Positions 11,180 to 41,041 are shown, numbered from the stretch's first letter. The stretch is 64,000 nucleotides of DNA from Chloroflexota bacterium (GCA_965221905.1 OZ244922.1:2148845-2212844), one strand, 5' to 3'. The notes: generated by a model not told the origin, from the letters alone. Numbers and translations: made by a program.

Positions 11180-11269
11180 GGCGGAGAGGGTGGGATTCGA
11201 ACCCACGAGGCGCTTGTGGCGCCTACTCGCTCTCCAGGCGAGCGCCTTCGACCACTTGGCTACCTCTCC
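11180..11269 (-). tRNA. tRNA-Ser (anticodon GGA), type II with long variable arm
   Basis: Folded by hand on the reverse complement: acceptor GGAGAGG/CCTCTCC, anticodon stem CTCGC/GCGAG with loop CTGGAGA, long extra arm, T-arm GGTTCGAATCC, discriminator G, CC encoded. Lies upstream of gltX on the same strand. Confidence 0.85.
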
Positions 11270-37505: not shown

Positions 37506-39293
37506 TTACAGCATATCGGAACGTGATTCTGCACTAGCACGCACCCGTGCACAGAACTCCGCAATAGGCAGCGCACCACAATTCTCGCCTGTGCGCAGGC
37601 GCACACTTACGGCGCCATCGTTGATCTCACGGTCTCCTACCACAGCCATATACGGTATCTTCTGAAGCTGCGCGTCCCGTATCTTGGCATTCATTCGTTC
37701 GGAACGGGTGTCTACCTCGGCGCGCAAATTAGCCTCGGAAAGTGCGGCGGCGACTGAGGTTGCATACTCGTTATGCCGGTCGGCAATAGGGATGATTACT
37801 ACTTGAACCGGCGCCAACCAAACGGGAAATGCGCCACCGTAGTGTTCGAGCAATATGCCAAAGAATCGCTCAATAGAGCCATAAAGCGCGCGGTGAATCA
37901 TGAAGGGACGACGGGCAGTGCCATCCTCCCCAACGTACTCCAACCCAAAAGTCTGCGGCAACCAGAAGTCGAACTGGATCGTGGATAGTTGCCAAGGACG
38001 ACCCAGCACGTCAACTATTTTTATGTCAACTTTTGGCCCGTAGAAGGCAGCTTCGCCCTCCATGCGCTTGTAAGAGAGGTCCAGTCCTTCAAGTGCGTCA
38101 ACCAGGCCGGCCTCGGCCATTTCCCAATCTCGCGCCTCACCTGCGTACTTGCTCGTTTCTCCTTGCTGCCACGTGCTCAGTTCCAACTGAAGGTCTTCAA
38201 AGCCATAGGTATCGAGAATCTCCAAGCAGAACTTGAGGACACGAACCAGCTCACTACTCATCTGGTCCGGGCGGCAGAAGAGGTGGGCATCGTCTTGGGT
38301 GAAGCCGCGCACCCGTAACAGCCCGTGCAGCACGCCGGACCGCTCATAGCGGTACACTGTCCCAGCCTCCGTGTATCGCAGCGGTAAGTCGCGGTAACTG
38401 CGCGTGCGGCTCTTGTATACCTGAATGTGGAAGGGACAATTCATCGGTTTTAGGTAGTATTGCTGGTCGTCGACCTCGACCGGCGCGTACATGCTCTCCG
38501 CAAACCAGTTCAAGTGGCCGCTTGTGCGCCAGAGATTGGCCTTGCCGATGTGCGGCGTGTAGACGAATTCGTACCCTCCGGCCCGATGACTCTCACGCCA
38601 GTAGTCTTCCATGATGCTGCGCACGTAACCGCCCTTGGCGTGCCACAGCACCAGACCCGGGCCGATTTCATCGGAAAAGCTAAAGAGATCGAGCTCACGG
38701 CCCAGCCGCCGATGGTCGCGCCGCTCCGCCTCTTCCAAGAACTTCAAGTAGGCTTTGAGTTCTTTCTTTGTCTCCCAGGCAGTTCCGTACACCCGCTGCA
38801 ATTGCTGGCGGTTCTCATCGCCCCGCCAATAGGCGCCAGCCGTGCGGAGCAGCTTGAACGCACCCACGGCACCAGTCCTATCAACGTGGGGGCCCTCACA
38901 AAGATCGATGAAGTCACCATTCCGATAGATGCTCACGTCTCCAACATTAGCGTCCCGTTCTAAGTCTTCGATCAGCTCGATCTTGTACATCTGATCTTGT
39001 TCGCGAAAGAACGTCTTCGCTTCTGCCACCGGCATGGTGGAGTGCGCAAAGGGCTGATCTTGGTCGATGATTTGCTGCATACGCAGGCTCAATTCATCAA
39101 TGTCCTCCGGAGTGAGCGTGCGGGGCAGGTCGAAATCATAGTAGAAGCCATCCTCTATCGCCGGGCCAATAGCTAGTTTGGCTTCCGGCATGTACTCCAG
39201 CATGGCCGTTGCCAGCACGTGGGCGGCCGAATGGCGAACTGTCTGCAGGCGTTCTACACATTGCTTTGCGTCAGCTTCTCGTACTTTCGGCAT
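37506..39293 (-). CDS. thrS: Threonine--tRNA ligase (lacks N-terminal TGS domain)
   Basis: Editing-domain HxxxH (HSAAH), class II core with QDDAHLFC, and a C-terminal anticodon-binding domain. GGAGA ribosome-binding site 7 nt upstream. Confidence 0.9.
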   Translation of the reverse strand: MPKVREADAKQCVERLQTVRHSAAHVLATAMLEYMPEAKLAIGPAIEDGFYYDFDLPRTLTPEDIDELSLRMQQIIDQDQPFAHSTMPVAEAKTFFREQDQMYKIELIEDLERDANVGDVSIYRNGDFIDLCEGPHVDRTGAVGAFKLLRTAGAYWRGDENRQQLQRVYGTAWETKKELKAYLKFLEEAERRDHRRLGRELDLFSFSDEIGPGLVLWHAKGGYVRSIMEDYWRESHRAGGYEFVYTPHIGKANLWRTSGHLNWFAESMYAPVEVDDQQYYLKPMNCPFHIQVYKSRTRSYRDLPLRYTEAGTVYRYERSGVLHGLLRVRGFTQDDAHLFCRPDQMSSELVRVLKFCLEILDTYGFEDLQLELSTWQQGETSKYAGEARDWEMAEAGLVDALEGLDLSYKRMEGEAAFYGPKVDIKIVDVLGRPWQLSTIQFDFWLPQTFGLEYVGEDGTARRPFMIHRALYGSIERFFGILLEHYGGAFPVWLAPVQVVIIPIADRHNEYATSVAAALSEANLRAEVDTRSERMNAKIRDAQLQKIPYMAVVGDREINDGAVSVRLRTGENCGALPIAEFCARVRASAESRSDML

Positions 39294-39349
39294 GAATCAT
39301 TCTCCTCACTTAGTATTATGTCTTGTTGCGAACTCTAACTCTTGGAAAT

Positions 39350-39384
39350 AGAAAAAACCTCTCGTGTCAGGTTTGTACGAGAGG
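39350..39384 (-). terminator. Intrinsic terminator inside the thrS 5' leader (transcription attenuator)
   Basis: Minus-strand reading: CCTCTCGT-N11-ACGAGAGG followed by TTTTTTCTATTT. It ends about 57 nt upstream of the thrS start, and no gene lies upstream of it on that strand. Confidence 0.6.
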
Positions 39385-39578
39385 CCTCAAGCGCTATCTG
39401 CTGTTTCTAGGTTTCGTGCTATTGTCCCCTCGTCACCTGCATGGAGAATTCACTCGTGGTGATATAGGCGATGCATCGCTGAAGATGTATTGAACCACCT
39501 AAACGATACACTACTCAGCATCTCCTCGTTGCGCCCCTATGGGCGCGCTTTGGACGGACAATCAAACCGTACTCATGA

Positions 39579-39607
39579 ATGGTACCGGAGCTTGCCACTA
39601 GTGTCAA
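39579..39607 (-). promoter_or_regulatory. Putative sigma-70-like promoter for the thrS leader (TTGACA-N17-TACCAT)
   Basis: Minus-strand motifs with 17-nt spacing. Would give a leader of about 280 nt. Coordinates are accurate to within 2 nt. Confidence 0.4.
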
Positions 39608-39757
39608 CATTGCTGTGGATCGGGAAAAGTGACTAAACTCCAACGAAAGTCCTCATCCATGACACCGGTCCAAACCTCTTGCTACCAAGGGGGACAGAGG
39701 CTAAAATTGGCGGACAGGGACTAATCCTGAGAACCAATAGGCGAAAGAGGGCATACG

Positions 39758-41041
39758 ATGCAGGTAGATCTCGCATACGGCCGCACTGGACTCAAGGTTT
39801 CGCTTCCGGATGAGCGCGTGGATATTGTAGAGCCGGTCAATCTCTCTGGTGTCGCAGAGTCCTCCGCGGCTCTACGCGACGCACTGCGCAATCCAATTGG
39901 AACAAAACCGCTGTGTGAGATCGCTGGAGCGGAGGATACGGTCGCAATCGTGTTTTGCGACATTACGCGTCCGGCGCCGAATCAACTTATGATACCGGCA
40001 ATTCTGGCCGAACTCACGCACGTGCCCCGAGAAAACATCGTGCTCATCAATGCTACCGGCATGCATCGTCCCAACACCGAGGCTGAATTGTGCGAAATGT
40101 TGGGCGAGGATATTGTGGCCAAGTACCGCATTGTCAACCATGATTCAACGGATGCGTCCCAGTTGCGTTTCCTTGGAGAGACATCCTTTGGCGGCCCGGT
40201 GTGGATCAACACGCACTACCTCGACGCCTCGGTTCGCATACTCACCGGCTTCATCGAGCCGCACTTCTTTGCGGGCTTCAGTGGGGGCGCAAAGCTAATC
40301 TTGCCCGGCATTGCCGGGGCTGAATCGGTGATGCATAACCACAACGCGGAAATGATCGGTCATCCCAAAGCAACCTGGGGGCATCTGGAAGACAATCCCA
40401 TCCACTGCGAGCAGCGCGAGGCGGCCGCCCTATGCCCGCCCGATCTCAGCCTCAACGTGACGATCAACAAACGCAAAGAGATCACGGGCGTCTTTGCCGG
40501 CGAAATGGTCCAGGCACATGAAGCCGGTTGCGCGTTTGCGCGTCGCTCTGTCATGCGACCGGTAGCAGAGCCATACGACATCGTGATTACGACGAATAGC
40601 GGGTATCCCCTCGACCTAAACCTCTACCAAGCCGTGAAAGGCATGTCGGCTGCGTATCAGGTGGTGAAACAGGGAGGCGCAATCGTCATTGCGGCTGAAT
40701 GTGTGGAAGGCATAGGTCACGGGCATTTCGAGGACCTACTGCAGGAGCGGGAATCTCCCACCGCTTTGCTGGATCTGATCAACAGCCCAGGATTCTCCCG
40801 ATTCGATCAATGGGAAGCCCAGATCCTGGCGCAGATTCTCCTGAAGGCTGAAGTGCATCTATTTGCGGAAACTCTCTCAGACCGAGCCATACGCGATGCG
40901 CATCTAATCCCATGCCGCTCGATAGAAGAAACAGTGGCCGCGCTGCAAGAGAGATACGGGCCAAGTGCGAGCATTTGTGTGCTGCCTATGGGGCCTCTGA
41001 CCATACCCTACGTTGCGGAACCGGCAGTGGCTGCGGTCTAG
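39758..41041 (+). CDS. larA: Lactate racemase-like protein (LarA family, nickel-pincer cofactor-dependent)
   Basis: LarA N-terminal (DUF2088-like) and C-terminal domain pattern, including NATGMHRPNT and conserved His/Lys positions. GAAAGAGGG ribosome-binding site upstream. Confidence 0.65.
   Translation: MQVDLAYGRTGLKVSLPDERVDIVEPVNLSGVAESSAALRDALRNPIGTKPLCEIAGAEDTVAIVFCDITRPAPNQLMIPAILAELTHVPRENIVLINATGMHRPNTEAELCEMLGEDIVAKYRIVNHDSTDASQLRFLGETSFGGPVWINTHYLDASVRILTGFIEPHFFAGFSGGAKLILPGIAGAESVMHNHNAEMIGHPKATWGHLEDNPIHCEQREAAALCPPDLSLNVTINKRKEITGVFAGEMVQAHEAGCAFARRSVMRPVAEPYDIVITTNSGYPLDLNLYQAVKGMSAAYQVVKQGGAIVIAAECVEGIGHGHFEDLLQERESPTALLDLINSPGFSRFDQWEAQILAQILLKAEVHLFAETLSDRAIRDAHLIPCRSIEETVAALQERYGPSASICVLPMGPLTIPYVAEPAVAAV

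Follow-up and report, generated by a model that had tools for sequence, protein, structure and literature searches.

A conserved thrS leader in a clade of Chloroflexota, a candidate ribosome-mediated transcription attenuator

Introduction

How is a threonyl-tRNA synthetase gene, thrS, controlled when its leader carries an intrinsic terminator and no recognizable T-box? This question is raised by a stretch of 64,000 nucleotides (nt) from a Chloroflexota bacterium (GCA_965221905.1, OZ244922.1:2148845-2212844), referred to here as the window, in which a 463-nt gap separates thrS from the divergently oriented larA. An initial annotation of this stretch described the gap, with which gene coordinates and domain matches agree, and placed in it a promoter, a long leader, and a terminator, proposing that thrS is subject to transcription attenuation. 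A T-box was its candidate sensor, and another leader-RNA mechanism its fallback. Attenuation is borne out by the conservation of promoter, leader, and terminator, together with an antiterminator that is 99% paired, but the T-box is not. The fallback was right in spirit, although a leader peptide, the best-fitting mechanism, had been excluded. The reading favoured here, with a probability of about 0.6, is that a classical leader-peptide attenuator, operated by the translating ribosome, controls thrS transcription.

Conservation of the leader

The thrS gene, encoding 595 amino acids (aa), lies on the minus strand (37506-39293, with its ATG at 39293 and its stop at 37506). Positions are counted from the first letter of the window and, unless otherwise indicated, refer to features of this strand. 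A protein search with its product (ThrRS) returned about 20 clusters at 83-97% identity, after which identity fell to 63%. The comparison set consisted of 13 fetched loci of this clade (of the ~20 ThrRS clusters), the locus L001, and the window, yielding 13 distinct leaders from 7 lineages, with ThrRS 82-86% identical among lineages. The closest species-representative genome is the metagenome-assembled genome OZ244798.1 (ThrRS identity 85%).

The divergent larA/thrS arrangement was found in all related loci compared. The leader is kept in 14 related Chloroflexota loci. In each of them it directly precedes thrS and has the same orientation, also where DNA has been inserted (L167 and L168) or where additional sequence sets it apart from larA. 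Mean pairwise identity across the leader is 0.61, with long invariant blocks, compared to 0.34 upstream of the -35 box, 0.39 from the terminator to the thrS start codon, and 0.55 at thrS third codon positions. As the flanking non-coding DNA is saturated and the leader nevertheless conserved, the element is real and under selection.

The annotated promoter (39579-39607) comprises a -35 box TTGACA (39607-39602), a 17-nt spacer, and a -10 box TACCAT (39584-39579). It scores 10/12 matches in a consensus scan, and the pattern TTGACA, 17- or 18-nt spacer, TA(G/C)CAT is present in 14/14 related loci. Transcription is predicted to start about 7 nt past the -10 box, which would give a leader of about 280 nt, as annotated. 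The 5' untranslated part (39528-39578) is the least conserved part of the leader, with many insertions and deletions (indels), and contains a small GC hairpin (GCGCCC, 39546-39541, with GGGCGC, 39536-39531) showing some two-sided changes. Conservation begins not at the transcription start but at an invariant AGGAG (columns 69-73 of alignment A3).

At the other end of the leader, the intrinsic terminator is made of a 5' stem GGCCUCUCGU (segment 3, 39386-39377), an 11-nt loop, a 3' stem ACGAGAGGUU (segment 4, 39365-39356, written ACGAGAGG in the segment model), and a U6 tract (39357-39352). It folds at -15.4 kcal/mol (z = -4.2, 0/200 shuffles as good), and its helix is 97% paired in 14 leaders. 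A consensus terminator scan missed this hairpin because the loop limit of the scan is 8 nt. The end of the U-tract and the thrS ATG are 58 nt apart, close to the distance of about 57 nt given by the initial annotation, and the terminator ends 45 nt upstream of the Shine-Dalgarno (SD) sequence of thrS itself, GAGGAG (39307-39302).

Alternative pairings of the leader segments

An antiterminator, which the initial annotation had left to be found, is indeed present. Its 5' strand, segment 2 (39439-39426), is composed of CAGG (39439-39436), UG, and ACGAGGGG (39433-39426), and its 3' strand is segment 3, common to antiterminator and terminator. The 8-nt segment ACGAGAGG pairs 8/8 with the terminator 5' half (CCUCUCGU) in 14/14 leaders, and the variants ACGAGGGG, ACGGGAGG, and AUGAGAGG all retain the pairing via G-U. 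The antiterminator cells of the alignment are 99.1% paired, against 31-51% when the partner is slid. The helix is lengthened by pairing of CAGG with CCUG in the terminator loop (39371-39368), which is 91% paired; the conservation of CCUG in that loop is otherwise unexplained. For the nascent RNA of the window taken without the 3' terminator strand, the minimum-energy fold is the antiterminator (-21.4 kcal/mol), and the energy difference between the two full-length states ranges from -7 to +10 kcal/mol among homologues.

Segment 2 can also pair with segment 1 (39448-39444), UUCUC in the window and CUCUC in most relatives; the corresponding columns (150-154 with 167-171) are 94% paired. The 1:2, 2:3, and 3:4 layout of a classical attenuator is found here, with 3:4 being an intrinsic terminator followed by a U-tract. 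Mutually exclusive terminator and antiterminator upstream of an aminoacyl-tRNA synthetase gene are common to all attenuators and not specific to the T-box. On these sequence features, the interpretation of the element as a transcription attenuator of thrS is supported.

The leader open reading frame

The invariant AGGAG is the core of a putative SD sequence, GAGGAG (39527-39522), which is followed by an invariant GUG at a spacing of 10 nt in 12/13 leaders and 11 nt in one. This GUG (39511-39509) opens a reading frame (39511-39419) of 30 codons in the window, ending with UAG (39421-39419) and encoding the peptide (M)YRLGGSIHLQRCIAYITTSEFSMQVTRGQ. The frame remains open for 26-30 codons in 13/13 distinct leaders; in the two other frames, stops are scattered from codon 3 to codon 47. 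The initial annotation had stated that no Thr-rich leader peptide is present. This holds in the sense of Escherichia coli thrL, since only 3 of the 30 residues encoded in the window are Thr, but a conserved GUG-initiated open reading frame (ORF), with an SD sequence and tandem Thr codons, is there. It was overlooked because it starts with GUG.

The proposed regulatory codons are AUC ACC ACG (Ile17-Thr18-Thr19, 39463-39455), of which AUCACC is invariant. The tandem Thr codons of the window, ACC ACG, are at 39460-39455; Thr is found at codon 19 (ACG) in 8/13 leaders and at codon 20 (ACU) in 3/13. ACC and ACG are the most frequent Thr codons in four neighbouring genes.

The position of the stop codon is linked to the frame. 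Relative to where segment 2 begins, the stop is located at -2, +9, or +12 nt (first base to first base) in 13/13 leaders. In six leaders, from 3 lineages, the frame is shifted by 2 nt inserted directly behind ACC, and all six stop at UGA or UAA within a GGUGACG site; in L168, the sole change at that site, G to A, converts UGA to UAA and retains the stop. In the 7 leaders without the insertion (4 lineages), the stop is UAG or UAA, at position +9 or +12, in 7/7 cases; this register is unconstrained in the insertion group (stop present in 2/6). L172, in which the UGA is not used as a stop, has lost it, and in the third register, used by no leader, stops are scattered. The association between frame and stop (7/7 versus 2/6) gives a Fisher p of ~0.02, uncorrected for phylogeny.

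The start of the ORF is embedded in a hairpin, P3/P3a (39515-39467), in which the start codon and codons 2-3 pair with codons 12-15. It folds at -18.7 kcal/mol (z = -4.2). P3 is 91.7% paired, with fixed G-U pairs, and the P3a tip is variable and covarying, with changes on both sides in 4/5 pairs. It is possible that P3 acts as a pause or synchronising hairpin for RNA polymerase, or that it limits re-initiation. As DNA, the 3' strand of P3 forms a perfect 12-base-pair (bp) palindrome in the window (GCGATGCATCGC); the relatives have ACGATGCATTGC at this place. A DNA-level operator at the CGATGCATCG palindrome was considered and rejected: the fixed G-U pairs correspond to C-A mismatches on the other strand. 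They favour a role at the RNA level over a DNA operator.

Proposed mechanism

Sequence and comparison establish the promoter, the SD sequence, the GUG, the ORF, the Thr codons, the stop position, the three alternative pairings, and the terminator; that the leader ORF is translated, with stalling at the Thr codons, we infer. With ample Thr-tRNA(Thr), the ribosome would reach the stop codon, located within or next to segment 2, and cover this segment. Segments 3 and 4 would then pair as the terminator, and transcription would end 58 nt before thrS. When charged tRNA(Thr) is scarce, for example with ThrRS limiting, the ribosome would stall with ACC or ACG in the A site, masking segment 1 and freeing segment 2 to pair with segment 3 as the antiterminator, so that the polymerase would read through into thrS. 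A shortage of charged tRNA(Thr) is a direct result of too little ThrRS, and would, thus, increase thrS transcription.

The distances within the leader are consistent with this model. Counted from the first base of ACC, segment 1 is located at 13-15 nt and segment 2 at 27-29 nt, and 37-49 nt separate the stop from segment 3. These spacings match the trp paradigm. Given that a ribosome generally covers about 12 nt 3' of its A-site codon, segment 1 would be at the edge of a ribosome stalled at Thr18-20 and be masked by it, with segment 2 left free, and a ribosome at the stop would hold segment 2 in its mRNA channel.

Several observations weigh against ribosome-mediated attenuation. Thr18 is the sole invariant Thr codon, several lineages have one Thr at the sensing site, and some have just one or two non-adjacent Thr codons (ITA, ITK). 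The association between frame and stop is based on 7 lineages, the avoidance of stops in frame 0 is not significant in a column-shuffle test (P = 0.18), and the codon-position periodicity is weak (0.24, 0.27, 0.33). At -5.8 kcal/mol, the 1:2 hairpin of the window is weak, and an untranslated leader may, as a consequence, default to read-through. The start codon sits within a stable, invariant hairpin, and nucleotides at synonymous sites are invariant in the conserved blocks (UAU, CGA, UGC, AUC, ACC). RNA-level constraints, therefore, certainly exist, and the conservation could be purely RNA-level; in principle, such constraints could account for all of the observations but one, that the stop position is linked to the frame.

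Alternative explanations

A second explanation retains the terminator and antiterminator as expression platform but makes the sensor RNA only. AGGAG, P3, AUCACC, and CUCUC would form an aptamer or a protein-binding site, with the ORF incidental, and the ligand would be a metabolite, the ThrRS protein (autogenous control), or tRNA(Thr) recognized otherwise than by a T-box. This is the main rival of the leader-peptide model, although unlikely on balance. The sequence invariance of P3, with its fixed G-U pairs and synonymous sites, exceeds what pairing or coding alone would need, and the statistical tests for coding are weak. AUCACCA combines a Thr codon and a purine, and resembles the CACCA of a tRNA 3' end. 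Ahead of segment 2, 12/13 leaders have GGU or UGU, each of them a Thr anticodon. Moreover, AGGAG with CUCU/CUCC could close the P3 domain (87.5% paired, but 94.6% once the partner is moved by two columns), and a long-range helix often encloses this domain in single-sequence minimum-energy folds.

Nevertheless, this long-range closing helix, P1, which pairs the 5' untranslated region with the antiterminator segment, was rejected. It was good in single-sequence folds and duplex predictions, but did not stand up to controls: duplexes with the leader's own partner average -15.1 kcal/mol, compared to -14.5 kcal/mol with partners from other lineages, and shuffled 5' regions are about as good in 7/13 leaders, the window included, where 69% of shuffles do as well. 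No Rfam family matched the element, in the window or in the divergent homologues L163 and L170, so that, with no Rfam class and a candidate closing helix no better than controls, the leader does not have the marks of a metabolite riboswitch. Manual inspection of alignment A3 revealed neither a conserved 7-nt anticodon-like loop nor a UGGN. An anticodon-arm mimic at GGU/UGU and an acceptor-end mimic at CACCA were discarded as well: a consistent stem-loop is lacking, and L172 departs from the pattern. Searches with an nhmmer profile and a covariance model built from 14 leaders, run on the 64-kb window and on 160 distant thrS loci, found no further copy. A sensor made of RNA only leaves unexplained why the stop position tracks the 2-nt indel and why the spacing from SD to GUG is fixed.

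In a third explanation, the invariant core, made of P3 with the start codon inside it and the peptide motif R-C-I-A-x-I-T, would do more than passively count Thr codons. It would either arrest the ribosome through the nascent peptide or be part of a hybrid sensor, with translation of the leader ORF gated by an RNA or protein ligand (possibly ThrRS, tRNA(Thr), or a metabolite). The motif would lie in the exit tunnel of a ribosome that has arrived at the Thr codons. This appears distinctly improbable; if true, it would be a new sensing principle for an aminoacyl-tRNA synthetase gene, having displaced the T-box in this clade.

It is very improbable that the hairpin belongs to an independent small RNA gene, or is an unrelated terminator, with the thrS promoter downstream. 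A terminated leader RNA of about 220 nt would arise anyway and could act in trans. However, only 58 unconserved nt lie between the U-tract and the thrS start, a stretch in which the consensus scan found no promoter-like site. The element is always directly upstream of thrS and in the same orientation, despite the changing distance to larA, and an antiterminator kept across 14 loci makes sense only if read-through matters.

The last alternative, a highly divergent T-box sensing uncharged tRNA(Thr), would suit the target gene, the terminator/antiterminator output, the leader length, and an ACC that is invariably followed by a purine, as expected for a T-box specifier. T-boxes are also the usual thrS leader in other Chloroflexota. 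Yet, in searches with Rfam 15, RF00230 matched nowhere on the whole window at its gathering score (93 bits), and gave no match even at E<=10 on three divergent members (the window leader, L163, and L170), although T-boxes were recovered as positive controls upstream of thrS in L012, L013, and L018 with 97-106 bits. Inspection of the focal-clade alignment found no T-box core and no conserved UGGN, K-turn (kink-turn), Stem I, specifier-loop, or distal-platform arrangement. A UGGN after the SD, tried as a candidate, occurs in only about half of the leaders, and no K-turn motif is conserved past the transcription start. The antiterminator is an unbroken 8-bp helix plus CAGG:CCUG, without the 7-nt bulge or conserved UGG of a T-box, the bases located 5' of the helix being GGUGA, UGUGA, GGUAA, or CGGGA. 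The specifier loop that the initial annotation suggested looking for is not there: ACC and the purine are invariant, but the next helix is 8-10 nt away. P3a, the tip of the single long hairpin, is free to vary, leaving no platform for the tRNA elbow. At the level of sequence and structure models, the T-box proposal is already refuted.

The T-box core GGGUGGNACCGCG (searched as GGGUGGNACC(G/A)CG) is present upstream of thrS in 24/153 more distant loci. A near variant was found at 4 further loci, among them the nearest outgroup (L002, L006, L023; 62% identity), which brings the regular-expression count to at least 28/153. The leaders of the outgroup and distant loci are canonical Thr T-boxes with specifier ACC, and the focal leaders have no sequence similarity to those of the nearest outgroup. 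As T-boxes are common in the phylum, including the nearest outgroup, they are the usual thrS leader, and the focal clade has replaced its own. Judging from the loci compared, the new element is restricted to one clade and took the place of the T-box at the same locus. A further arrangement recurs in many distant loci of Anaerolineae/Chloroflexota, where tRNA-Val(GAC) immediately precedes the T-box-thrS unit on the same strand (L003 364-438; L004 542-618; L008 2576-2651; L012 9-84; L013 1705-1778; L020 590-664).

Relation to known systems

Classical attenuators of aminoacyl-tRNA synthetase genes are known for pheST in gamma-proteobacteria and are predicted for trpS and leuS in Streptomyces (PMC1262725). 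The E. coli pheST leader (pheM) and those of Streptomyces trpS and leuS share with the present one a short ORF with cognate codons, mutually exclusive antiterminator and terminator, and a U-tract. The differences are the amino acid (Thr), the phylum (Chloroflexota), the absence of sequence homology, a GUG start inside a conserved hairpin, and a longer peptide (26-30 aa). In addition, there are 1-3 regulatory codons here, against 5 Phe codons in pheM.

The thr and trp leaders of E. coli are also related in design. Thr and Ile codons are the sensing codons in thrL, as proposed here, although thrL, with 8 Thr and 4 Ile among its 21 aa, is far richer in Thr than the present peptide. As in the trp leader, the stop abuts segment 2, the regulatory codons are in or just before segment 1, and about 40 nt separate the stop from segment 3. 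Unlike the thr and trp leaders, this one controls a synthetase and not a biosynthetic operon, has a weak 1:2 hairpin, and matches no Rfam leader family.

With the Chloroflexota Thr T-box (RF00230), the element has in common its target gene, the choice between terminator and antiterminator, and its genomic position in sister lineages, and both very likely answer the same signal, the supply of charged tRNA(Thr). It differs by having no Stem I, specifier-loop architecture, T-box sequence, or UGGN bulge. In the preferred model, moreover, tRNA charging would be sensed indirectly, via the translating ribosome. The translational operator of E. coli thrS is another case of leader-based thrS control. 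It relies on anticodon-arm mimics, autoregulation by ThrRS, and translation initiation at the thrS SD, while in the present loci the surroundings of the thrS SD are unconserved (terminator-to-SD identity 0.39) and manual inspection of alignment A3 found no conserved 7-nt NU-NGU-AN loop.

Full-text literature searches turned up no account of a thrS leader in Chloroflexota other than the T-box. If the leader-peptide model is right, an ancestral tRNA-sensing T-box was swapped for a ribosome-sensing attenuator responding to the same signal, a clean natural regulatory replacement at one locus. thrS would then join pheST, trpS, and leuS on the short list of classically attenuated synthetase genes, and the coupling of transcription and translation in Chloroflexota would have to be close enough for attenuation. 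GUG-started leader ORFs with few sensing codons are easily overlooked, by eye as well as by gene callers. None of the distant loci had a convincing Thr-rich leader ORF before thrS. Two other ORFs of the focal leader were rejected: an ATG-initiated one (MLSSVSF..., 39521-39450), which is not conserved and stops after 7 codons in L001, and a His-containing one (MHCPYHH) from an AUG within P3, which has no SD and whose frame is unconserved.

Other features of the locus

The ThrRS of the window contains tRNA_SAD, tRNA-synt_2b (class II core), and HGTP_anticodon domains. It lacks the N-terminal TGS domain and starts at the editing (tRNA_SAD) domain, as do its Chloroflexota relatives (~592-600 aa). 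No tRNA(Thr) gene was found in the window or the collected loci; tRNA-Ser(GGA), at 11180-11269 on the minus strand, is the sole tRNA and the sole Rfam match at gathering score in the 64-kb window.

Two related loci have additional sequences around the leader. In L167, a further ORF of 140 aa, with no Pfam match, lies between larA and the thrS leader (667-1089). In L168, about 120 nt of additional long inverted repeats (GGTCATTCCCGCGAAAGCGGGAATCC ... GGATTCCCGCGTGCGCGGGAATGAC) are found between the leader terminator and thrS (~1335-1500). This block looks like a small insertion of the repetitive extragenic palindromic or miniature inverted-repeat transposable element (REP/MITE) type in the read-through region.

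The larA homologue (39758-41041, plus strand) has Lar_N and LarA_C domains. Its putative promoter (39679-39707, plus strand), which lies in the same intergenic region but outside the attenuator, consists of TTGCTA, a 17-nt spacer, and TAAAAT, and is part of a block kept in relatives (39679-39756, plus strand). Near the larA start, a motif CGCCAATT(N)TAGCC on the minus strand is conserved in relatives and may be a candidate site for a regulator.

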